DNA from: a bacterium
GTDB taxonomy: Bacteria > Ratteibacteria > UBA8468 > B48-G9 > JAFGKM01
Assembly (NCBI GenBank): GCA_026414725.1
Contig: JAOAIL010000006.1
Coordinates: forward strand, 390-64,389
DNA length: 64,000 nucleotides
Reading direction: 5' to 3'
In this document: positions 1,199 to 63,325 of the stretch, one piece after another
How positions within the stretch are numbered: the first letter of the stretch is position 1
Layout: every line of letters begins with the position of its first letter
Made by a program: the position numbers and the translations under genes
The notes under the pieces: generated by a model
What the model was told of the DNA's origin: nothing
Database searches by the model: none
Seen by the model: only the letters and a program-made list of their open reading frames with translations

Positions 1199-3712
1199 TT
1201 AAATAATAATTGACTGTTCTTTTATTTTGTTTACCTTTAAAACCCAAATATTCTCAGAATAACTCCGTAATTTTCTACTTATTTCAACATCTTTCTGCAC
1301 TATTTTATCTTTTAAAATATTCCATAAAGTATCTATTATTTCCCGTTCTTTTATTTTCCATCCTGATAAATTTATTACATATTTAGCTATGATTTCCTTT
1401 TTAAACCAAAGCCAAGTAATGTCCAAATTATTTAGAATAGCATCATTTATTTTTTTAATTATTTCATTTTCATGTTCTGATTTTATTATTGACATAGAAA
1501 AAATCTCTCTAAATAAATTATGCGCTTCTTCTTTATACTCAGAAACATAGCCAGCGTTCAAAATTGATACTGTCTGAAAAAAAGTATTGATATACTCTGA
1601 ATTTTCTAAATTGTCATAAAGTCCTTCAACCAACTTTTGTTTCTCCTTTTCTGTAAAATTATTTTTATTTTTTAAAATTTCTAGGGTTCCCTTCAATAAA
1701 ATCTCTTCATATATCTTTCCTTTCCCAGATTCTATATATCCTTTTTCTTTTATATAATAGACATATATGTTTTTTTCATTTTGAGAATAATAATTTTCAT
1801 ATGTAAAAATTCTATTTGAATCTTTAATACTTCCTGTTAATACATTTACTCTCCTCATTATTCTTCCCATACGTTGAATCAAAGAATCCATTGGAGCAAT
1901 CTCTGTAAATAAATAATCTGCATCTATATCCAATGATGCTTCAATAACTTGAGTAGCAACAAGTATTTTAGATTTATTCTCATCTTCGGGTTTAGGATTA
2001 TTGAATTCTTCTTCCAGTCTTTTTTCCTTTTCCTTTCTTTCTTCTAATGTAAATCTTGAATGTAGTATATCAAGGTATATTTTTTGATCTTTAGTACTAT
2101 TTTTTATGTATTCATACATTTCCTCTGCTTTTTCAACAGTATTACAAACCACAAGAACTCTTTTACCTTTTTTAGATTTATCTATAATTTCTCTTATATC
2201 ATCTGTAATACTTTTATCTCGCAATTCTATCTTATGCCTGATAAGATCGTCTTTTATTTCAGAATAATAATTAATAATATCGCTATCCGATATGACATTC
2301 TTATCTTTCAAATAATTCTTTACAAAATTAGGAAGTGTTGCTGTCATCAATAAAAATTTACCACCCAGAGAAACAATATCTTCTATTAATTTTACTATCA
2401 TTGCACATGCTTTTGGATTATATGCTTGAACTTCATCTATTACTAATCTTGAATAGCCTAAAGTTGCATAAACTTTTTCGTATTGAGGGTATTTTAAAGA
2501 TGCAGGAAAAATCTGGTCTCCTGTACATATATTTATGGGTAAAGAAAAATGTCTTGAAAGGTCTAGAATTTTAAGTAGTTCCCCATCTATATCTTCTGTT
2601 GAATTGCTTGATTTTTCCACCAAATAAAGGTCTGCATCTGAATGTAAAAGTCCCACATTTTCATTTATGAAAGGGTCTTCTTCTTTAAAAATAGCAGCAT
2701 TTGATTGGTTTAAGTATTTAGAGATACGGTCAAATATTTGGTTTGTGGCACATCTTAAAGGAAGTGTATAAAAAAGTTTCTCATCCTCTGACCACAATAA
2801 AGCAAATTCTGTTTTACCAATACCTGTCGGGGCAATAAGAATCAAATTTTTGTTTTTAAAATTTTCAACCATATCTTTCTGCCAAAATTGTTTGCCAAAA
2901 TGTTTTTCTAATATATTCTCAATAATAGAAATTCTTTTTGTTTCCTTTTCAACTTCGCATAAAGTAATACCACGGTGTTCTTGCCTTTCTACAAATGAAG
3001 TAAAATGGTCTGCTCTTATTAAAAAGCCAGAAAGAAAAATCCACAGATTAAGGTCTATTTTCAATTCTATTTCCAGTTTTAATCTCTCTGGTAGAAAATA
3101 AAGAGTGTACGGAGGGATTATCCCAATACTGGTTAAATTACCCCCTTGAGAAATTTGTTTTACAATATGTTCATCAAATGAAATATAATCAGTTACGGCC
3201 AATCCATCTATTTTAAAATTAGAAAAAATTTTTTTTAGTTCTTCCGTAAGTGTTGCTCCATTACTATTCTTTAACAGAAATTCTGCTGTTTCTCTCAAAT
3301 CATTATTTATTTGCAAAAGATACTTTTTTTCGTCTATTTTCCAGTGATGAAAAGCAACAGCAGATAAAAATGTTGTATATAAACTTTCGCTATTTCTACA
3401 TATTGTCTTTACTTTTTCCTTGTCTATGAAGAACAAGGATAGAATATTGTGTCTTACATAAGGAAATTTATTATTGGAAGTCAGGGTATTGGTATTACCT
3501 ATCTTTTTCTGAAAAGAAGGCGATATTTTCCCAAGGTCATGAAAAAATCCAGCCCATTTAAGCAGATATTTTAAATAATACTCATCAATATTAGAACCGT
3601 TTTTAAAATTGCCATAGTTTAATTTATCTAAAGGTAGTTTTTCAATTGTTTTTATCACATCTTCAGTGTGTTTAATTAATAGTACTCCACTAGATTTTGC
3701 CCATATATCCAT
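1199..3712 (-). CDS. cas3: Cas3 fused HD nuclease plus DExH helicase
   Basis: N-terminal HD motif FFHDLGK, Walker A LIAPTGIGKTEFAL, DEVQ box. 837 aa. Confidence 0.9.
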   Translation of the reverse strand: MDIWAKSSGVLLIKHTEDVIKTIEKLPLDKLNYGNFKNGSNIDEYYLKYLLKWAGFFHDLGKISPSFQKKIGNTNTLTSNNKFPYVRHNILSLFFIDKEKVKTICRNSESLYTTFLSAVAFHHWKIDEKKYLLQINNDLRETAEFLLKNSNGATLTEELKKIFSNFKIDGLAVTDYISFDEHIVKQISQGGNLTSIGIIPPYTLYFLPERLKLEIELKIDLNLWIFLSGFLIRADHFTSFVERQEHRGITLCEVEKETKRISIIENILEKHFGKQFWQKDMVENFKNKNLILIAPTGIGKTEFALLWSEDEKLFYTLPLRCATNQIFDRISKYLNQSNAAIFKEEDPFINENVGLLHSDADLYLVEKSSNSTEDIDGELLKILDLSRHFSLPINICTGDQIFPASLKYPQYEKVYATLGYSRLVIDEVQAYNPKACAMIVKLIEDIVSLGGKFLLMTATLPNFVKNYLKDKNVISDSDIINYYSEIKDDLIRHKIELRDKSITDDIREIIDKSKKGKRVLVVCNTVEKAEEMYEYIKNSTKDQKIYLDILHSRFTLEERKEKEKRLEEEFNNPKPEDENKSKILVATQVIEASLDIDADYLFTEIAPMDSLIQRMGRIMRRVNVLTGSIKDSNRIFTYENYYSQNEKNIYVYYIKEKGYIESGKGKIYEEILLKGTLEILKNKNNFTEKEKQKLVEGLYDNLENSEYINTFFQTVSILNAGYVSEYKEEAHNLFREIFSMSIIKSEHENEIIKKINDAILNNLDITWLWFKKEIIAKYVINLSGWKIKEREIIDTLWNILKDKIVQKDVEISRKLRSYSENIWVLKVNKIKEQSIII

Positions 3713-3726
3713 TTTAATACTCCGGA

Positions 3727-4578
3727 TTAAATCATTTTACACAAAAAAAGAGGAATATTCATTTCAGTATCTGTTATAAATTCAAAAGGTTTTCCGAAAT
3801 AAAAAGGAAACTCACCTTGTTCAAAAAGTTTCACAGGGATATGTCTAAAATTTCGGAAACCATCTTCTATTTTATAAAGCCCTGTGACTAGATGAAAACT
3901 CCCTTTAATTTTTAAGAAGAACTCCTTATAGTCAACAGGATAAAAATCTTTTTCAAACCAATTAGGATATTCTTTACTTTTCTTATTTCGTGGTCTTGGG
4001 TCAGGAATCCAAGTATAATAGTATAACTTTCCATAAAAAGGTTTTTTATTATTTTTATCAATATCAACTATCCTTATTGCTTCCTCTGGACTATCTTCAA
4101 ATACAATCCAGTCCTCTGCTCTTCCAAGATGTAAAGGATAAATTCTATTTTGTGGATTGTTAAATACCTCCTTCAATTCTATGATGAATTTTTCATCACT
4201 ATGGTAAATGTAGATGATAAGGTTTACATTCTCTAAAACATCTATTCTCGTAGGTATCTGTCTTCCTGGATGTTCAGGAATTTGGTCCATAGTTCTATTT
4301 TGTATAGTAATAAATCTATTTCTGTGCGAATTTGCTGACAAGTTTCTTAGCCATATATATTCTTTTGTCATTGATTCAAACTTTCCATAAATAGCAAGAC
4401 CTAACTCTTTTAACTTAACGAACTTCTCATCATTTTGGTCTTTTATTCCGAGAACATTACATATAAGTCCTATAACAGTAGAATAAGGAGGAATGGGATA
4501 AGTATGCCTTCTAGAAAGAGTGAACGGAATTCTATAATGAACATGGGGTTGATAAATTTTTAATCTCAAAAATTTCAT
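3727..4578 (-). CDS. cas5: Cas5 (Cas5t/Cas5h-type) Cascade subunit
   Basis: N-terminal LTYPIPPYSTVIGLICNVLG-type Cas5 signature; position between cas7 and cas3. Confidence 0.8.
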   Translation of the reverse strand: MKFLRLKIYQPHVHYRIPFTLSRRHTYPIPPYSTVIGLICNVLGIKDQNDEKFVKLKELGLAIYGKFESMTKEYIWLRNLSANSHRNRFITIQNRTMDQIPEHPGRQIPTRIDVLENVNLIIYIYHSDEKFIIELKEVFNNPQNRIYPLHLGRAEDWIVFEDSPEEAIRIVDIDKNNKKPFYGKLYYYTWIPDPRPRNKKSKEYPNWFEKDFYPVDYKEFFLKIKGSFHLVTGLYKIEDGFRNFRHIPVKLFEQGEFPFYFGKPFEFITDTEMNIPLFLCKMI

Positions 4579-4618
4579 TTTAACTATTCCTGTATTTGGT
4601 AAATTCTTTTCTTAAGAG

Positions 4619-5560
4619 CTATTTAAATAACTCTTTTATAAATATATCCCATTTTGCATATGAGTGCTTTTCTATAAAATCTGAACTCATTGCATCTGGT
4701 TCTCGAGATTCAACAAAAGTTAAACTTTTTCCATTTATTTTTTCAATCCAACCATTAGATATTCCATTCTGCAGTAAATTCTCCCTAATTCTAAATTTTG
4801 GTCTATGATTTTCTTTATAGAATTCCACATCAACAAAGGAATGAAATATTGGAATAGGAATCTTTACGATACCTGAAATCAAAAATAAAGGCACAATGCC
4901 AGGACATTCTCCAGAAGAATGATAGTAAAGACCATTGTAAATAGAAGTCAATATGTCTAGAACTCGTCCCTCCTTTTCTTGGTCAGAAATAACCAATCTG
5001 CCACTATCATCGGTTCCTATTTTTTTCAAATCCAACGTAAAGGAGGTTTTATAAAGCGACTTATGTTCTTCAGGATTATATGGATTTGGTTCAAGTTTTG
5101 CATCTGGATATTGTTTAACATATCTTCTAACTAAATCATGATTCGCATAGAAAGTAATATCTCCTGCCCATGGTTCAAAAGAAATAGATTTTGTTATTCC
5201 TATAGCGGATTTCCTTGTAATCTGTTTTCCTTTCCCCTTTTTATTACCTTTTTTAGTTCCCATATATCCAAAAACATCAAGTTCAGCATACTCTTTAATA
5301 TTACCTTTTTTAAGATCAAATTGAATAACATTACCATTGGCTCTTGTAACGGGCGCTTCTTTCCATCTTTCTGGATTCATCCTGTTAAGTGTTATCCAGA
5401 GGTAATGTCTCATTGCAGGCCTTGAAATAAATGAATATGCTTCTCCCCAACCTCTCATAAGTTTCTTGATAGAAGGAATATTTCCTGCTACTTTTTCTCC
5501 TCGGTTAAGAGCATCTGCTTCAAAAATAATAGTAATGGTTATTGCTTCCTTAATCTTCAT
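4619..5560 (-). CDS. cas7: Cas7 (Cst2/DevR-type) Cascade backbone subunit
   Basis: ITIIFEADALNRGEKVAGNI N-terminal Cas7 signature. 313 aa. Sits in the canonical I-B position. Confidence 0.8.
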   Translation of the reverse strand: MKIKEAITITIIFEADALNRGEKVAGNIPSIKKLMRGWGEAYSFISRPAMRHYLWITLNRMNPERWKEAPVTRANGNVIQFDLKKGNIKEYAELDVFGYMGTKKGNKKGKGKQITRKSAIGITKSISFEPWAGDITFYANHDLVRRYVKQYPDAKLEPNPYNPEEHKSLYKTSFTLDLKKIGTDDSGRLVISDQEKEGRVLDILTSIYNGLYYHSSGECPGIVPLFLISGIVKIPIPIFHSFVDVEFYKENHRPKFRIRENLLQNGISNGWIEKINGKSLTFVESREPDAMSSDFIEKHSYAKWDIFIKELFK

Positions 5561-5870
5561 TTTGTTCCTCCTTTATATTTTTTTGTAAAGTTAAAATAGG
5601 GGCTAGGAATGAGAAAAGTAATGTTTTAAAGTATATTTCATTCTCAGGTTTAAATGCTTCTATAAGTTCTTCAGGAAATTTCTTTCCATTTGTCTTAAAC
5701 CATCTAAGTAGTATATAAAAGACATTATCTTTATTCTCGAGACGAATCTGTTCAAGTAACCTGAAAGCGATGTTATCTATTGATTTCAACTCCTCCTCGG
5801 ATGCTAATTGTCTACTTATTTCTTTTCCTTTTTCTTTTAAATTCCACATTAGTATGTCTATATTAGCCAT
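5550..5870 (-). CDS. Small (106 aa) protein between cas8 and cas7, a putative separately encoded Cas11/small subunit
   Basis: Overlaps the cas8 stop by 8 nt and the cas7 start by 11 nt, so it is translationally coupled. Size and position fit a small subunit. No recognisable motif. Confidence 0.45.
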   Translation of the reverse strand: MANIDILMWNLKEKGKEISRQLASEEELKSIDNIAFRLLEQIRLENKDNVFYILLRWFKTNGKKFPEELIEAFKPENEIYFKTLLFSFLAPILTLQKNIKEEQNED

Positions 5871-7008
5871 ATCCCACCTCCGTTTTTAAGATTTTCATTA
5901 TTCTTGTATATAATTCTGACAAAAGGAGTGAAATTTTATAAAGATTATTTATATCCATTTTACTTTCACTTATATACTTTTTTACTGGATCGTTTTCAGA
6001 AATCCTTTCCTTATTTTTTATTTTTAATAGAGTCCTTAAAATAAAATAGTTTGCCTTTTCAAGTTCTGAAAATTTTCCATCAAGAAGTAAATTAAAAATT
6101 TTTATTTCTCCAATTCTATCTATTAAATTAGCAATTTCATAATCAATTAATATTCTTGTTATGTGATAAGGTAAATCATAATAATCAATAATATTTTCCA
6201 ATTTATTATTAATTCTAACCCTTCTTTTAACTATCATTTCAATATTCATCATTGTCCAGGTTCCAAGTAGTGCTCTTCTTTTGACAATCCACTGAAGTAA
6301 GGAAGTAGCAAAAAGTTTTTTAATGTTATATTGTTCATCCTTGATAAAAAATTTTTCAATAAATTTATTTAAATCCCATGTAAGATAGAATAAAGAAGTA
6401 TTTATAAAAACATCTTTGTAAAAAGATAAATGATGAAAAATTACTAAATAAGAACACAGATGACATAATGGTGTTGAGGTTTTAAAGTTCCAGAAGGAAT
6501 TAGGCATTTCTGTAATGGCTCCTCCTAATTCTTTAATATGTATTCCTTGAAATACTTCTCTTTGAGAGATAAATTTAATAAATGAATCTTTATTCTTTTT
6601 ATATGAAACATTTGTTAAAAATTTACTCTGTAAATCATCTAATACTTTTTGAGGTAAGAAATGCCCACAACACCAATTACAGGATTTATTATTTATTCTG
6701 GGTTCAACAGAAGATAATTTTTTAATATATTCTTCCTTAAAAAAATCTTCTTGATTTTTTTGTATATAATTTGGATATCTTTTATTTTTTCCATATATTT
6801 TAAACTCTTCGTTTAATTCCTTTTTATGATATTGTACAAGCAATTTATAACTTTCTTCTAAAACCTTTCTTTCTATCTCAACACTCCCATCATTATTAAA
6901 TTGAAAAGTATTATTTTTCCCAGCGAATTCTAAAATTCGTAACAGGCCGACCACGCCTGCGTTATATAGCCAGTTAGAAGGGTAAAGTGTTATTTTATTA
7001 TTTGCCAT
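5863..7008 (-). CDS. cas8: Cas8 large subunit, Cst1/Cas8a1-like (cas_CXXC_CXXC family), type I-B Tneap variant
   Basis: N-terminal TLYPSNWLYNAGVVGLLRIL and two Cys pairs (CNWCCGH and CHLCSY), characteristic of Cst1. 381 aa. Confidence 0.7.
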   Translation of the reverse strand: MANNKITLYPSNWLYNAGVVGLLRILEFAGKNNTFQFNNDGSVEIERKVLEESYKLLVQYHKKELNEEFKIYGKNKRYPNYIQKNQEDFFKEEYIKKLSSVEPRINNKSCNWCCGHFLPQKVLDDLQSKFLTNVSYKKNKDSFIKFISQREVFQGIHIKELGGAITEMPNSFWNFKTSTPLCHLCSYLVIFHHLSFYKDVFINTSLFYLTWDLNKFIEKFFIKDEQYNIKKLFATSLLQWIVKRRALLGTWTMMNIEMIVKRRVRINNKLENIIDYYDLPYHITRILIDYEIANLIDRIGEIKIFNLLLDGKFSELEKANYFILRTLLKIKNKERISENDPVKKYISESKMDINNLYKISLLLSELYTRIMKILKTEVGYG

Positions 7009-7568
7009 TTTTTCTTTATCTCTTCTATTATTTTTAATGTTTTTCTATTAACATCAGGATAATCTTCTACAGAAAGAATTGCTCCAAGATATAGATTAAA
7101 ATCCTGCAAAGGAAACTTTTTTTCAAAATCGCTTTCTACTTTTTCTTTTTCCCACTTATATTTACTATAAAGGAATGCAAAATCCACCAAATCTTTTGTT
7201 TCAATTCTTCTTCCAGCAGAATAGATTTTGTTAATGAATATGTCATAATCAGAAGCCATTTTTATTCCGTCATATACTTCAAGTGGATTTATATTTTTAA
7301 AAGGGAAAAAGATAAAAGAAACTTTTATTCCTTTAATTATAAAGTCAATATTATCCACAAACTTTTCTTCTTTTTCCAGTACAAAAAATTTTTTTATTTT
7401 TGAGGATATTCTCATATAAGAAAATTCTTCCTCAGTAAGGAAATCAAGGTCTTCACTAATTCTATGATTATACTTAAACATTAATACAGTCCCACCTGCA
7501 AGATAGAAATTTTTGAAATTATTCTGTATCTCCCTCGCTATTTTTTTCATTTGTTCTGTTTTTTCCAT
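6990..7568 (-). CDS. Nucleotidyltransferase of the AbiEii/DUF1814 (type IV toxin-like) family, embedded in the cas operon
   Basis: N-terminal minimal-NTase motif FYLAGGTVLMFKYNHRISEDLDF matches the AbiEii LKGGTAL...R.SEDIDF consensus. Overlaps both neighbours. Confidence 0.6.
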   Translation of the reverse strand: MEKTEQMKKIAREIQNNFKNFYLAGGTVLMFKYNHRISEDLDFLTEEEFSYMRISSKIKKFFVLEKEEKFVDNIDFIIKGIKVSFIFFPFKNINPLEVYDGIKMASDYDIFINKIYSAGRRIETKDLVDFAFLYSKYKWEKEKVESDFEKKFPLQDFNLYLGAILSVEDYPDVNRKTLKIIEEIKKKWQIIK

Positions 7569-7819
7569 ATCTTTATCCAGAATTTTACTCCCCTTTTTAC
7601 TTCAGGGTATTTAAAAGCAATTTTGAAAGTTTCTTCAGGATATTGATAATAAATTTCTTTTATATCTTCAAAATTACCATAGGTGAGTATTCTTAATATA
7701 TACTTTTCAAGGACAACATCTTTTGCACAATCCCAGAATATACTTCTATATTTTTCAGGAATGTTTACTTTTTCTTTATATGTAATATTTATTCTTTGAG
7801 TTTTTCCTATGGTCTTCAT
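7547..7819 (-). CDS. 90-aa protein of unknown function, upstream partner of the NTase (possible antitoxin/adaptor)
   Basis: 6 nt after the cas6 stop, with a 22-nt overlap with the NTase gene. No recognised motif. Confidence 0.4.
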   Translation of the reverse strand: MKTIGKTQRINITYKEKVNIPEKYRSIFWDCAKDVVLEKYILRILTYGNFEDIKEIYYQYPEETFKIAFKYPEVKRGVKFWIKIWKKQNK

Positions 7820-7825
7820 CTTATC

Positions 7826-8572
7826 TCATAACTGTTTTATTACATCAATCATTCCAAAACCCTGGCCAGTTCTTACTCCTATCCCAAAATCATATAAAAA
7901 TTGCAATACTTCAGGATTCCCTTCAAGGGAAAAGCCACCTTTAAATCCTTTTGCATATCCACCAAAAACAGGAACTATTATTTCTGTTATTCTATAATCC
8001 GGTAGGATATTAAATTGTATATTACTTTTCAATGTTTTTCCTAAGATAGAACTATAACTTATTGCTGTTCTTTCATTAAATACTTCATTGAACTTCTGTA
8101 TGTTATCTTTTGAGGGAACTGTAAACCATTCAGAAAAGTTAGAAGGAGAAGCAGATGGGTCTGTCATTACTATTGCACCTATGGATTTACAAATAATCTT
8201 TGAGGAATTTATCCTACGCTGTGGGAGAAGTTGTATATTCTCAAGGACAAACTTTACTCCTTCAATTTCTATAAATGCATTCTCGTTCTTTTGAAGAGAT
8301 AGTATTCCATTCCAAAAGTGAGAAATTACTGAAATATCACCGGAAGAAAAAATGATAGATATATCAGGTCCTAAAATACCTTTCTCCCAGTTTAGCCCGA
8401 GAAATGGAGAATAGACATAGGGTTTTACCTTCTTGGTACTAAATAGTTCTTCGTATTCTAATTGTGAGGCGGTGGAGAATATCTTTTTAAGAAATGATAT
8501 GAAATACTTTCTGATGTCTTTATTCTTTTCTGTCTTTATAGAGTTGCCTTTCAAAATAAGAGAAAATCGCAT
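7826..8572 (-). CDS. cas6: Cas6 crRNA endoribonuclease
   Basis: MRFSLILK N-terminus and the C-terminal glycine-rich loop GVRTGQGFGMIDV. Confidence 0.8.
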   Translation of the reverse strand: MRFSLILKGNSIKTEKNKDIRKYFISFLKKIFSTASQLEYEELFSTKKVKPYVYSPFLGLNWEKGILGPDISIIFSSGDISVISHFWNGILSLQKNENAFIEIEGVKFVLENIQLLPQRRINSSKIICKSIGAIVMTDPSASPSNFSEWFTVPSKDNIQKFNEVFNERTAISYSSILGKTLKSNIQFNILPDYRITEIIVPVFGGYAKGFKGGFSLEGNPEVLQFLYDFGIGVRTGQGFGMIDVIKQL

Positions 8573-8652
8573 TTTAATTATTTTACCTTTAATTTATAAA
8601 AGTGTAAATAGATGTTATTACATTGTCTTACTCTTTCCTTGCATCTTTCTTC

Positions 8653-8925
8653 AGGAGAGGGTAAAAGACCAATCCCTCCCGTATTAGGGGGTGGGAAAAT
8701 AAGTGTGGGTAGAGAATAAAGCAACGGTTTCACCCTCACCCGTACCCTCTCCCCTCAAGGGAGAGGATATAGAATAAAGAATTGAGGAGAAAGTAAGGGA
8801 AGATTTCATTCCCACCCTGTTCTGACGGACTTAAGACACCCACCTCACCATCTCGGTGGGTGTGCTATACAATGTTCCTTACCCGTCGCACCAGCACCCA
8901 TCTCTCCTCAAGAGAGGGGAAATAA
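8653..8925. repeat. Composite GC-rich multi-hairpin intergenic repeat, including a reverse-orientation copy of the 95-nt module
   Basis: Contains CACCCTCACCCgtaCCCTCTCCCCTCAAGGGAGAGG and a 95-nt module at about 8806-8900. Confidence 0.8.
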
Positions 8926-23809: not shown

Positions 23810-24583
23810 ATGAAAAGGAAGATAATAAATTTTTGTATAGGTGCAGTATGCATCATTTTCCTTTCTGGCTGTGCAACTACAGGTAAAAAGGGGAGTAAAG
23901 AGATTGCAAAAAACGACCTTGAACTGATTGATATAAAGATGAAACAACTCCTTGCTATATCTGAAACAAGTTTAGAAATCAGCCGTAAGGCAGAGGAAAC
24001 ATCAAACGAAGCACTTGAAAAAAGCAAACAAGCAGAAGCAACGAGTGATAAAGCATTAGAAGCATCAAATAAAGCAATAGAAGCATCAAATGAAGCAAAG
24101 AAATATGCTGAAGAACAATCGCAAAAAGCGATAGAAGCAGCAAACGATGCGAAAAAGTATGCTGAAGAACAATCACAGAAAGCAATAGAAGCATCAAATA
24201 CTGCCTCTAAAGCGGCTATTGAATATTCTGATAGAGCAGCAGAAAAAGCAATTCAGGCATCTAACGAAGCAATTAAGGTAGCAAATCTTGCAAGTGAAAA
24301 GGCAATAGCAATAGCAAATCAGACAATGGCAGAAGTAAACAGGTTAAGAGCAACTATAAAGATGCAGGAAGAGGTAGAACCCATATTGAAAGAAGAACCA
24401 GCGGTTAAAATAGAACAGGTAGAACAAAAAGTACACATTGTTAAGAGCGGAGAAACACTTTCCACTATTGCCTGTAAATATTATAAAGATTCCTCTAAGT
24501 GGAAAGTAATATATGATACAAATAAAAATGTTCTTAAAAACCCTAATGTTATTACACCGGGAACAAAATTAGTCATTCCATAA
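23810..24583 (+). CDS. Lipoprotein with a repetitive alanine/lysine coiled-coil region and a C-terminal LysM domain
   Basis: FLSGC lipobox, internal KAIEASN repeats, LysM (VKSGETLSTIA...VITPGTKLVIP). Confidence 0.75.
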   Translation: MKRKIINFCIGAVCIIFLSGCATTGKKGSKEIAKNDLELIDIKMKQLLAISETSLEISRKAEETSNEALEKSKQAEATSDKALEASNKAIEASNEAKKYAEEQSQKAIEAANDAKKYAEEQSQKAIEASNTASKAAIEYSDRAAEKAIQASNEAIKVANLASEKAIAIANQTMAEVNRLRATIKMQEEVEPILKEEPAVKIEQVEQKVHIVKSGETLSTIACKYYKDSSKWKVIYDTNKNVLKNPNVITPGTKLVIP

Positions 24584-29344: not shown

Positions 29345-29411
29345 CAATCTCCTCGTTTTAATTTAAAGAATAGGAAACTTTATTCCCCATATAAGGGGAA
29401 GGATATTAAGT

Positions 29412-29470
29412 GGGGGATAATAAAGGTCTCACCCTCACCCTGTCCCTCTCCCCTCAAGGGAGAGGGAAAC
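29412..29470. repeat. Single hairpin-a repeat unit upstream of the tRNA pair
   Basis: GGTCTCACCCTCACCCTGTCCCTCTCCCCTCAAGGGAGAGGG. Confidence 0.8.
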
Positions 29471-29484
29471 TAATTTATAATTTT

Positions 29485-29558
29485 GCGCCCATAGTTCAAC
29501 TGGATAGAACGTCGGGTTGCGGACCCGAAAGTTGCTGGTTCAAATCCGGCTGGGCGCA
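29485..29558 (+). tRNA. tRNA-Arg; anticodon reads GCG in my hand fold
   Basis: Cloverleaf: acceptor GCGCCCA/TGGGCGC, D-arm GTTC..GAAC, anticodon stem TCGGG/CCCGA with loop TTGCGGA, T-arm GCTGG-TTCAAAT-CCGGC. Confidence 0.65.
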
Positions 29559-29560
29559 CA

Positions 29561-29636
29561 CGGGGCGTGGCTCAGCCTGGTTAAGAGCGCTTGGTTCGGG
29601 ACCAAGAGGTCGGCGGTTCAAATCCGCCCGCCCCGA
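29561..29636 (+). tRNA. tRNA-Pro (anticodon CGG)
   Basis: C1:G72 acceptor, anticodon loop TTCGGGA, T-loop TTCAAAT. 2 nt after tRNA-Arg. Confidence 0.7.
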
Positions 29637-47931: not shown

Positions 47932-47981
47932 TCTTATTTATTATATCACAACTAAATCATACTTGAATTCCCTTTGATTTT

Positions 47982-48180
47982 TCCCTCTTCCTTGAGGGGA
48001 GAGGGATGCTGATGCGATGGGTAAGGAATACCGTATAGCCAGCCGAGATGGTGAGGCGGGTGACCGAAGCCCGTCAGAGCGAGACAGGGTGAGACCTTCC
48101 TATACTTTTCCCCCTAATCCTTAACCTTCTCCCCCCATAGGGAGAAGGTAATTTAGGTATCTCCCCCTCATATGGGAAGA
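47982..48180. repeat. Composite GC-rich multi-hairpin repeat, including the 95-nt module (48003-48097)
   Basis: Hairpins CCCTCTTCCTTGAGGGGAGAGGG and CCTTCTCCCCCCATAGGGAGAAGG; GGTGAGACC. Confidence 0.8.
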
Positions 48181-52340: not shown

Positions 52341-52359
52341 GATGAAAAATTATTCTATA

Positions 52360-55423: not shown

Positions 55424-55655
55424 CTCCTACCCATATGAGGGGGAGAGACCTAAATTACCTTCTCCCTCGGGGGGAGAAGGTAAGGATGAGGGATAAAGTT
55501 TAGCAAAGGTCTCACCCTCACCCTGCCCCTCTCCCCTCAAGGGAGAGGGAAAACAGTTCCTCCCCATATGAGGGGGGAGGATATAGGTGGGGGTAGAGAG
55601 TAAAAGTAAAGTTCTCACCCTCCCCTTAATCCCCTCCCCTCAAGGGAGAGGGATA
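55424..55655. repeat. Tandem pair of composite hairpin repeats between pstB and phoU
   Basis: Hairpins b (CCCATATGAGGGGGAG), c (ACCTTCTCCCTCGGGGGGAGAAGGT) and a (CCCTCTCCCCTCAAGGGAGAGGG), twice. Confidence 0.85.
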
Positions 55656-55673
55656 AAACATAAGGAGAGAAAA

Positions 55674-56378: not shown

Positions 56379-56394
56379 ATCACAAAATTGGAGA

Positions 56395-56570
56395 TAATAT
56401 CTCAGAGTGCCCGAGAGGGCTTAATAGGGAAGTGTCGCACTCACCAAGGTGAGGAGACGACTACGCTCCCGGCGCTGTAGGGCTGACGAAATTCCAAAAG
56501 CCACTGTCTGAAAAGACGGGAAGGTGGAAGAGTAGAATGAAGCCCAAGTCAGAAGACCTGCTCTGAGGAA
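56395..56570 (+). promoter_or_regulatory. Cobalamin (AdoCbl) riboswitch aptamer
   Basis: Blocks CTTAATAGGGAAG, GCCACTG...GACGGGAAGGTGG and B12-box-like AAGCCCAAGTCAGAAGACCTGC, in the same order as the E. coli btuB leader. Closing helix CTCAGAG/CTCTGAG. Confidence 0.7.
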
Positions 56571-56637
56571 TGGCGCAGCTTTTTCCTGCGGAGTACAGGA
56601 AAAAGGGTTTTTGTATTTTAGGCGAAGAAAACAGGGT

Positions 56638-56682: not shown

Positions 56683-56920
56683 ATCCTCCCCATATAAGAG
56701 GGAGAGACATAAATTACCTTATCCCTATGGGGGAGAAGGTTAAGAGGGGGAAAGTATAGTGAAGGTCTCACCCTCACCCTGTCCCTCTCCCCTCAAGGGA
56801 GAGGAAAGAAAGTCCTCCCCATATGAGGGGGGAGGAATTAGGTGGGGGTGGAGAGTGTAAGCAAAGGTTTCACCCTCACCCTGTCCCTCTCCCCTCTAAG
56901 GGAGAGGGAAGGGGAGAGGG
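56683..56920. repeat. Tandem pair of composite hairpin repeats between the riboswitch terminator and the RNase HII-like gene
   Basis: Same b-c-a hairpin order. 56815-56875 is nearly identical to 57828-57888. Confidence 0.85.
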
Positions 56921-56935
56921 ATAATAAGGGATGCT

Positions 56936-57808
56936 ATGCCAGAGAAAAAAAGGATACTCGGGATAGATGAAAATGGACTTGGACCGCTTATGGGTCCTCT
57001 CGTCATTACAGGAGTCCTGTTAAGGTATGGAGGAAAAGACGTTTGGTTTGATGGTATAAGTGATAGCAAGGAATTTTTTTCAAGAAATATAGACAGGTTC
57101 TCACAATTAGAAGATACGGTTTTATCTCTTTTTTATCTTCTTGAAGGTAGAACACCTTCATCTCCAGTAGAAATACTTGAAAATTTCTGTGTAAAATATG
57201 ATTGTCTTTCCGGATTGAATATCTGCACCCGTAATATTCCGGATAGGTTTATATGGTCGGAAGGTAAAAAATGTGAAGAGTTGTCTGGATGGATGGGAAA
57301 GAATGGAATAGAGATAGAAAAGATACAATCAATTGCTCTATGTCCCAAGAGAATCAACAATTTTATAGAAAAGGGAGACCATAAATTCCTGCTTAATCTT
57401 TCTGCATTCTGCGATATTATAAAGAACCTCCCTGATAAAAATATGCTCTCTGTATATGCAGGCAGGGTTGGAGGATTAAAATTTTACAAAAAATATCTAA
57501 CTTATTACCTTTATGACTATCAATGTGAAACTATTGAAGAGAAAGAAGATGTCTCCTTATACCGGATGGAAGGAGATAATGAAACATTCACAATGGGCTT
57601 TTACACAGATGTAGAGAAGAAATCCTTTCCTGCTGCAATTGCATCAATTATAGGGAAATATATTAGAGAGTTATTTATGGCAGGTATACGGAAAACTCTC
57701 GGGATATCAGAAGATATCTCCGGCTATCATGACAGGAGAACAAAAAAATTTGTCCCTTCCATCTCCCCTGAAAGGTTTCCTTCAGATTGTATCTTCCGCT
57801 CAAAATAG
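56936..57808 (+). CDS. Divergent RNase HII-like protein with a large Cys-containing insertion
   Basis: RNase H2 motifs GIDENGLGPLMGP (GIDEAGRGP), GISDSKEF (DSK), and AAIASIIGKYIRE (ASIxAKxxRD, with E in place of D). 290 aa against about 200 for canonical RnhB. Confidence 0.55.
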   Translation: MPEKKRILGIDENGLGPLMGPLVITGVLLRYGGKDVWFDGISDSKEFFSRNIDRFSQLEDTVLSLFYLLEGRTPSSPVEILENFCVKYDCLSGLNICTRNIPDRFIWSEGKKCEELSGWMGKNGIEIEKIQSIALCPKRINNFIEKGDHKFLLNLSAFCDIIKNLPDKNMLSVYAGRVGGLKFYKKYLTYYLYDYQCETIEEKEDVSLYRMEGDNETFTMGFYTDVEKKSFPAAIASIIGKYIRELFMAGIRKTLGISEDISGYHDRRTKKFVPSISPERFPSDCIFRSK

Positions 57809-61936: not shown

Positions 61937-62275
61937 CCTACCCATATGAGGGGAGATACCTGAATTACCTTCTCCCTATGGGGGGGAGAAGGTTAAGGAT
62001 GAGGGGGAAAAGTGTAGCAGAGGTCTCACCCTCACCCTGCCCCTCTCCCCTCTAAGGGAGAGGGGAAAAGAAGAAAATCCTCCCCATATGAGGGGGGAGG
62101 GTGCTGGTGCGACGAGTAAGGAGCAACGTATAGCACAGATGGCGAGATGGTGAGCCCGTTGACTGAAGCCCGTCAGGGCAAGAACAGGTGGGGGTGAAGA
62201 GTATAGAAAAGGTCTCACCCTCCCCTCTGAGAGAGGGGAAACTTAACAGAACCTATCTCCTCAAGGGAGAGGAAA
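61937..62275. repeat. Composite hairpin repeat cluster with the 95-nt module (62099-62200)
   Basis: b-c-a unit, then hairpin b fused to the module, then two more degenerate hairpins. Confidence 0.85.
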
Positions 62276-63081: not shown

Positions 63082-63325
63082 ACCCTCTCCCTTGAGTGGA
63101 GAGGTTCTATTAATTCTCCTCTCCCTTAGAGGGGAGGGGATTAAGGGGAGGGTGAGACCTCCGATGTACTTTTCCCCCTCATCCTTAACCTTCTCCCCCA
63201 TAGGGAGAAGGTATTTTAGGTATCCCCCTCATATGGGGAGGATTTCTTATTTACCCTCTCCCTTGAGGGGAGAGGGTTAGGGTGAGGATGAATACCTGTT
63301 TTAATCTTCATCCTCACCCCTTAAA
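63082..63325. repeat. Composite hairpin repeat cluster in reverse orientation, plus a perfect 13-bp inverted repeat
   Basis: CCCTCTCCCTTGAGGGGAGAGGG twice, CCTTCTCCCCCATAGGGAGAAGG, GGGTGAGACC; GGGTGAGGATGAA...TTCATCCTCACCC. Confidence 0.85.

Follow-up and report, generated by a model that had tools for sequence, protein, structure and literature searches.

In the 64,000-nt stretch of DNA analysed here (hereafter the window; G+C content 35%), a module of 78-85 nt recurs inside clusters of intergenic hairpin repeats, and the first-pass annotation read it as a possible small structured RNA or as the core of a MITE. The question that this locus raises is which of these two readings, if either, accounts for the module. 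The explanation that we consider best, with a confidence slightly above even, is that a lineage-specific family of small palindromic repeats, located between genes, carries the module as an optional internal cassette. The existence of three copies, the relationship between filled and empty sites, the constant position and polarity of the module and its absence from an orthologous site are directly supported. The features on which the argument is built are collected in Table 1.

The window holds exactly three copies of the module, all of them intergenic, with limits that were set by alignment against module-less repeat units. A covariance model built from the three copies (R1) scored them at 99-110 bits, while the next best score in the 64-kb window was 12.8 bits with filters off. 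The 11-mer GAGATGGTGAG has three mismatch-free occurrences in the window, one per copy (0.93 occurrences are expected by chance at ≤1 mismatch), and the 16-mer GTGCGACGGGTAAGGA from the 5′ part of the module, searched with ≤3 mismatches, returned the three copies and one chance match in coding sequence, against an expectation of 0.06. These scores, the exact count of GAGATGGTGAG and the alignments bear out the three locations given in the first-pass annotation. The invariant blocks that it listed are likewise present in every copy (TGCTG, TGCGA, GTAAGGA, GTATAGC, CGAGATGGTGAG and CCGTCAG), and the more variable centre that it described corresponds to alignment columns 37-44, where copy 2 has a deletion of 4 nt in the inner-stem 5′ strand. 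Copy 3 is without a 5-nt 3′ tail and has a perfect 8-bp inner stem, CACCCACC/GGTGGGTG. The figure of about 85% identity needs qualification: it referred to the ends only, and over the whole module the pairwise identity among the three copies is lower, at 77-79%. The pattern of conservation, which had been thought unlike that of simple palindromes, stands in part. Clustering of the variable columns is moderate (runs test, p = 0.011), mostly as one 8-column block that contains the indel, whereas an invariant run of 12 nt, the longest present, is of a length to be expected at such divergence (p = 0.18); the conserved blocks thus indicate non-randomness only weakly. Chance or an assembly artefact has practically no claim to explain the resemblance of the copies. 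The contig does come from a metagenome-assembled genome (MAG), and such assemblies are error-prone at repeats, but chance is at odds with the distance between the R1 scores of the copies and the next best score, and the copies, being 21-23% diverged from one another and set in unique flanks, are not collapsed or duplicated products of assembly.

Table 1. Positions in the window of the module copies, of repeat units and clusters with and without the module, and of the elements of the consensus hairpin in copy 1.
Feature	Position	Strand	Remarks
Module copy 1	62101-62185	+	85-nt insert relative to four module-less units; R1 110.5 bits
Module copy 2	48007-48084	+	78 nt; R1 105 bits; filled/empty alignment with unit 63105-63245
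Module copy 3	8820-8897	-	78 nt; R1 99.3 bits; aligned with the other copies
Long-form host unit of copy 1	62077-62246	+	Hairpin A, module, linker L, hairpin; flanks align with short units
Short (module-less) host unit, example	56812-56912	+	Families D1-D6; z -4.9 (+), -4.2 (-)
Empty-site counterpart of copy 2	63105-63245	+	Same hairpin, same reversed linker and hairpins, without module (A5)
Repeat cluster holding copy 2	47979-48175	+	Amidohydrolase/response-regulator intergenic region
Repeat cluster holding copy 3	8650-8925	-	cas6/pyrK-like intergenic region
Irregular hairpin, copy 1	62111-62174	+	RNAalifold consensus
P1	62111-62117 with 62168-62174	+	GACGGGU/GCCCGUC
P1b (2 bp)	62120-62121 with 62163-62164	+	
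P2a	62124-62127 with 62158-62161	+	Variable 5-nt spacer (GUAAGGA-GUAUAGC) paired with bases after inner stem
P2b (3 bp)	62141-62143 with 62154-62156	+	Closes invariant loop GAGAUGGUGA
Invariant terminal loop GAGATGGTGA	62144-62153	+	10 nt
Invariant internal-loop motif GTATAGC	62128-62134	+	

The repeats around the module are numerous. Repeat finding recovered 9-12 copies each of several overlapping families of G+C-rich palindromes in eleven intergenic regions, with clusters at 8.7, 29.4, 38.8, 41.4, 48.0, 52.4, 55.4-55.7, 56.7-56.9, 57.8, 61.9-62.3 and 63.1-63.3 kb. The host unit of the module, which is common in the window, is about 100 nt long and is built as hairpin, linker and hairpin. The outer hairpin is exemplified by CCTCCCCATATGAGGGGGGAGG; the linker, itself a hairpin with GGGTGAGGGTG/CACCCTCACCC arms, has the arm sequences GGTGGGGGTGGAGA and TCTCACCCTCACC; and CCCTCTCCCCTCAAGGGAGAGGG makes up the second hairpin. 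Predicted folds of the unit comprise three hairpins or a single long one, with z-scores of -3.7 to -4.9 on both strands, and a strong fold on both strands identifies it as a long imperfect palindrome. Palindromes of this family keep their pairing while their sequences drift. Compensatory change is therefore general to these repeats and is not in itself the mark of an RNA gene.

Other elements lie among or near the clusters. A cobalamin riboswitch (56388-56579, + strand, 94.8 bits) is situated between the repeat clusters at 55425-55668 and 56684-56923; the open reading frame (ORF) next 3′ of it, 56936-57808, has only a short N-terminal match to RNase HII and is an unusual partner for such a riboswitch. 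At 29405-29481, a repeat unit stands immediately 5′ of two adjacent tRNA genes (29485-29558 and 29561-29636). Within coding sequence, ORF 23810-24583 contains a tandem repeat (24037-24285) with periods of 21 and 54 nt, rich in alanine, serine, lysine and glutamate. The repeat clusters are crossed by ORFs of 80-84 codons at 61976-62218 (-) and 8433-8687 (+), one of them antisense across module copy 1, and both are most likely spurious. Two antisense frames are open in all copies of the module.

The relationship between the module and its host unit is best seen in alignments of units with and without it. Of roughly a dozen otherwise similar palindromic units, three have the module. When copy 1 and its flanks were compared with the short units at 52352, 55550, 56805 and 57813 (alignment A4), the flanks matched end to end, and the 85-nt block of the module replaced a 4-nt spacer between GGGGGGAGG and AGGTGGGGGTG. 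Copy 2 has an empty-site counterpart elsewhere in the window (Table 1), a unit that is 94-97% identical to 48103-48165 (families D10 and D20); in their alignment (A5) about 75 nt are present in copy 2 only, in a context that is the mirror image of that of copy 1. The arrangement of copy 3 is that of copy 2. Every copy of the module interrupts a G-rich arm, between GGGGAGAGG-type and GGGTGAGGGTG-type segments and with one and the same polarity relative to that arm. It is followed on its 3′ side by CAGG(G)TG... in every case and preceded by a GGGAGAGGG-type hairpin arm, so that each copy sits directly 3′ of such a hairpin, in agreement with the earlier remark that the copies are fused to one of the hairpin repeats. 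Being a palindrome, the host unit has a G-rich arm on either strand, and the two are equivalent. Relative to an orientation of the host unit defined as hairpin A, linker and hairpin C, the module is sense in copy 1 and antisense in copies 2 and 3.

Farther out than the segments directly next to the module, the units that flank the three copies vary in type and orientation, which argues that the copies are not parts of one longer duplicated consensus. Of the MITE-core proposal, then, the repeat element survives and the core does not: the clean filled/empty alignments make the module an optional cassette instead. It also differs from classical MITEs in having no terminal inverted repeats, its ends (GTGCTGG... 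and ...CAAGAAC) being unrelated by inversion. The only inverted repeat of the module is internal (GACGGG/CCCGTC); the host unit itself is a long inverted repeat. No clean target-site duplication appeared in the filled/empty alignments, where the module takes the place of a 4-11-nt spacer that the empty sites have and that is not duplicated, and a GGGTG-like motif is found at the 5′ end of the module and again just 3′ of it in all three copies. A Pfam scan identified no transposase among the 18 annotated ORFs of the window. The module copies and the short units have diverged alike (the short units are 71-82% identical), which points to the same age and dynamics for both. With blastn-short, the module showed no similarity to other repeats of the window beyond chance 9-12-mers. 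The shared TAAGGA...GTRTAGC had suggested that the module derives from the linker element; the same search, which gave chance matches only, ruled this out.

The genes next to the three sites are unrelated, and comprise two divergent pairs and one convergent pair. Copy 1 is placed between convergent glutamine-amidotransferase and cytidylyltransferase genes, copy 2 between divergent amidohydrolase and response-regulator genes, and copy 3 between divergent cas6 and pyrK-like genes. A type I CRISPR-Cas set occupies 1199-8572 (-) of the window and includes cas6, a gene for a CXXC_CXXC-domain protein, a DevR/Csa2-family cas7, cas5 and cas3 (HD and helicase), with an AbiEii-type toxin-domain gene (6990-7568) embedded between cas6 and a large-subunit-like gene. 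Tandem Repeats Finder detected no CRISPR array in the window.

Relatives were compared next. One flanking protein is 100% identical to the NCBI MAG protein MCX8082482.1, and the next best protein match, at 82% amino-acid identity, is to a Candidatus Ratteibacteria MAG. A contig of this MAG, the nearest relative (L128), is collinear with 45.9-50.9 kb of the window, with gene order kept over 5 kb, and its response-regulator/amidohydrolase intergenic region measures 120 nt and contains neither repeats nor module. The orthologous site being empty, the cluster at 48.0 kb is specific to the lineage of the window and was either gained there or lost in the relative. Two further relatives were uninformative, since gene order at the syntenic sites is not conserved. 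A metagenome scan with the outer hairpin retrieved seven contigs with near-identical host units (L146, L148, L149, L151, L153, L155 and L156). All hairpin-linker junctions in these contigs are of the short form, and R1 detected no module in the seven, even with filters off; nor did it find one in 30 loci from relatives.

Searches for the module alone gave a similar picture. A three-block pattern of the module had no matches in the JGI metagenomes, either half used as a pattern had none in IMG/VR, and blastn against plasmids and phages returned no match. Translations of the three copies, sense and antisense, had no match at E ≤ 10 among 5.8 billion predicted proteins; this composite query was meant to catch spurious ORFs called over homologous modules. 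In reference genomes, the pattern GAGATGGTGAG-N13-17-CCGTCAG gave at least 120 chance matches, and among the matches listed none had GTATAGC upstream.

The hairpin type of the host repeat, for its part, is very widely distributed, far beyond the lineage of the window. The string CACCCTCACCC-N2-5-CCTCTCCCCT-loop-GGGAGAGG occurs exactly in IMG/VR contigs L129-L142, whose G+C content is 48-71%, and two reference genomes, a Hyphomicrobiales MAG and Phytobacter (L013 and L029), have hairpins of a like kind, CCTCTCCC...GGGAGAGG. Host units may also carry other inserts. In L146 and L156, both JGI metagenome contigs, near-identical host units have a 49-nt insert, CAGGGAAGGATGAGGGAAAGAGAGCGGAGATAAGGAATTGGTAGGGTCG, in the linker loop, and another insert of about 50 nt, AT-rich, after GGTGGGGGTGG; the variety of these inserts shows that the repeat family takes up more than one kind of cassette. 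In a relative with 78% amino-acid identity (L121), a cluster of related hairpins (CCCTCTCCCCCTTGCGGGAGAGGGAAAGGGTGAGGGGG) lies at 8640-8800, and one of these hairpins has an insert of about 60 nt in its loop region, another case of inserts within palindromes.

Several known repeat systems resemble this one in part. The closest analogues are the Correia elements with their long and short forms, BIMEs and BOX elements, with Correia/NEMIS nearest. Correia elements exist in forms of 107 bp and 155 bp that differ by a 50-bp internal segment, and this segment carries an IHF site (PMC2229807). As in Correia/NEMIS of Neisseria, short and long forms of a non-coding intergenic palindrome differ here by one internal segment, of 78-85 nt, and both would fold into a long stem-loop. 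The two systems share no sequence similarity and belong to different phyla. Correia elements have terminal inverted repeats of 24 bp and duplicate a TA, and no counterpart of either was found for the module; the module is also without the IHF site, a search for the consensus WATCARNNNNTTR with ≤1 mismatch finding none inside the three module intervals of Table 1. REP and BIME sequences are short G+C-rich palindromes in mosaic intergenic arrays with alternating orientations and extra non-palindromic motifs (PMC2817692, PMC3733652). The host repeats of the window, though not the module, resemble the REP/BIME/REPIN sequences of Proteobacteria in being G+C-rich palindromes of 20-40 bp in mosaic intergenic clusters. 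On one side, REP palindromes end in a conserved tag, GTAG or CGTC, that is unpaired (PMC3733652); by inspection only, no such tag was recognised at the foot of the host hairpins, and CGTC is found within stem P1 of the module. A further difference is that no RAYT gene was seen among the 18 Pfam-scanned ORFs of the window. The accessory motifs of BIMEs are much shorter than the module, which has an internal hairpin of its own.

A modular build with optional internal segments is also common to BOX and ERIC elements. Wilson and Sharp, in 2006, reportedly described ERIC copies enlarged by internal insertions of about 70 bp. BOX elements of Streptococcus pneumoniae are modular repeats made from sub-units, with optional or variable internal modules (PMC3049150). 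Sequences, hosts and module order all differ from those seen here, and transcription or effects on mRNA have been reported for ERIC and BOX. Among RNA families, whalefall-1 (RF01762), one of the hairpin-type motifs in Rfam that come from metagenomes, matches the flanking GGGAGAGGG hairpins weakly, at 19.7 bits against a gathering threshold of 37, and the module itself does not match it.

Whether the module is selected as an RNA was approached through its structure. RNAalifold applied to the three copies predicts one common irregular hairpin of 16 pairs (Table 1), in which 47 of 48 cells are paired (97.9%), a value obtained with three sequences from which the structure itself was derived. Three pairs have changed on both sides (A-U/C-G/U-G, G-C/A-U and G-C/C-G), and five of the six one-sided changes give G-U, where the opposite strand would have A-C mismatches. 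Pairing falls to 27-48% when the 3′ partners are slid by 1-3 columns, and of 500 column shuffles, 16 equalled the observed pairing values. A longer inner stem, incompatible with P2a, is an alternative in which 91.7% of cells are paired. By inspection, a pseudoknot between GUGCU and AGCAC is possible in copies 1 and 3 and is lost in copy 2. Folding energies of the sense strand are ordinary relative to shuffles (z = -0.3, -1.6 and -0.9). The 10-nt terminal loop is the same in every copy, even though the stem that closes it varies on both strands. Taken as support for a selected structure, the common hairpin is suggestive, but not strong.

Database and signal searches covered known RNAs and expression signals. 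A scan of the window against Rfam 15 at gathering thresholds reported only the cobalamin riboswitch and the two tRNAs. The covariance search of Rfam proposed in the first-pass annotation was run for each copy against 4227 families at E ≤ 10; it gave only unrelated matches below 11 bits that differed by copy, and no family matches the module. Scans for consensus promoters and terminators revealed nothing framing it. Motifs such as GUGCGAC, CUGAAG and AAGCCCG had brought self-cleaving ribozymes, group II intron domains, fragments of rRNA, RNase P or tmRNA and IS605-type guide RNAs into consideration; all were ruled out, since no Rfam model gave a match even at E ≤ 10. Also ruled out was a conserved short reading frame beginning with the AUG of GAGAUGGUG, since it would have six codons in copy 3 against 14-16 in the others.

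How far these results favour an RNA has to be weighed against the DNA-level readings. If the module were a functional structured RNA domain expressed from the G-rich strand, and either carried by the repeat units or domesticated from them, its invariant GAGAUGGUGA loop and its GUAAGGA and GUAUAGC internal-loop motifs would bind a protein or another RNA. We judge this unlikely, if less so than the other rivals considered below. The near-complete pairing with its two-sided changes and its sensitivity to sliding, the G-U pairs that would be mismatched on the other strand, the constancy of the loop above a varying stem and the clustering of variable columns are all as such a domain would have them. 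They come, however, from three sequences that also supplied the structure, and they are offset by the shuffles that do equally well, by a competing inner stem that is nearly as good, by sense-strand folding no better than that of shuffles, and by a number of invariant columns and a longest invariant run such as neutral divergence would leave at about 78% identity. The module moreover belongs to no Rfam family, is framed by no promoter- or terminator-like signals, changes from sense to antisense relative to the host unit between copy 1 and copies 2 and 3, and was not detected in the relatives examined. The structured-RNA half of the original suggestion therefore keeps its hairpin, its compensatory changes and its strand-specific G-U pairs, and loses ground on the shuffles, the ordinary z-scores and Rfam. 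Were the module a selected RNA structure, it would represent an RNA family that is new and confined to a phylum about which little is known, a claim for which the present data are insufficient.

A different reading makes the module a miniature non-autonomous mobile element, mobilised by a single-strand transposase of the IS200/IS605 or RAYT type and inserting, with strand and site specificity, next to the GGGAGAGG hairpin arm. In its favour, the module always enters the G-rich arm at the same point and in the same polarity, and the two places where it does so are symmetric within the palindromic unit. An internal imperfect hairpin without terminal inverted repeats or a clear target duplication, which is what the ends of single-strand transposons have, would also fit such an element, as would the GGGTG-like motif repeated at the 5′ end and just after the 3′ end in all three copies. 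We nevertheless think it improbable: no such transposase is among the annotated genes of the window, there is one hairpin and not two subterminal ones, the copies are old and diverged with no near-identical pair to indicate recent movement, and recombination between units accounts for the same pattern. It is a similarly long shot that the module is an undescribed irregular hairpin of about 80 nt, with the GAGAUGGUGA loop and the GUAUAGC internal loop and with strand- and site-specific insertion into the G-rich arm of palindromic repeats, representing either a new class of functional RNA or a new miniature single-strand mobile element with a partner enzyme. Still less probable, in our estimation, is a DNA-level platform for a nucleoid or regulatory protein, comparable to the IHF site in long Correia elements and some BIMEs. 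An optional internal segment whose invariant blocks are separated by variable spacers is what might be expected of such a platform, and published systems have an IHF site in a comparable segment (PMC2229807). Yet no copy contains the IHF consensus, the sites share no gene context, and the compensatory pattern and the G-U asymmetry are unexpected for a site in duplex DNA.

The reading that we prefer, an optional cassette within a palindromic repeat, would work as follows. Host units of about 100 nt pile up as mosaic clusters between genes, and in a minority of them a segment of 78-85 nt interrupts the G-rich arm and produces the long form. At the DNA level, the cassette would spread along with the repeat units or be swapped with them, possibly by strand- and site-specific insertion or by recombination between units. 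Its hairpin may be kept in the same way as the other palindromes of the family, for recognition or stability as a single-stranded hairpin and not as an independent RNA gene, and if nearby genes are affected at all, this would be a by-product, for instance where the cassette forms a structured segment within an untranslated region. Some observations count against the cassette. The module resembles no other repeat of the window from which it could have arisen; it has neither terminal inverted repeats nor a clear target-site duplication, and the 18 annotated ORFs include no transposase; and the compensatory changes and G-U pairs on one strand are such as a selected RNA structure would give.

The locus extends to an uncultured lineage related to Candidatus Ratteibacteria the kind of modular intergenic repeat, with long and short forms, that is familiar from Neisseria, enterobacteria and pneumococci, and it provides a clean example of a cassette with a fixed position and polarity inside a palindromic unit. 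For annotation, the clusters deserve attention in that they attract spurious ORFs and miRNA-like RNA matches, and they are of value for quality control of MAG assemblies. They also offer a starting point for asking how such cassettes move.
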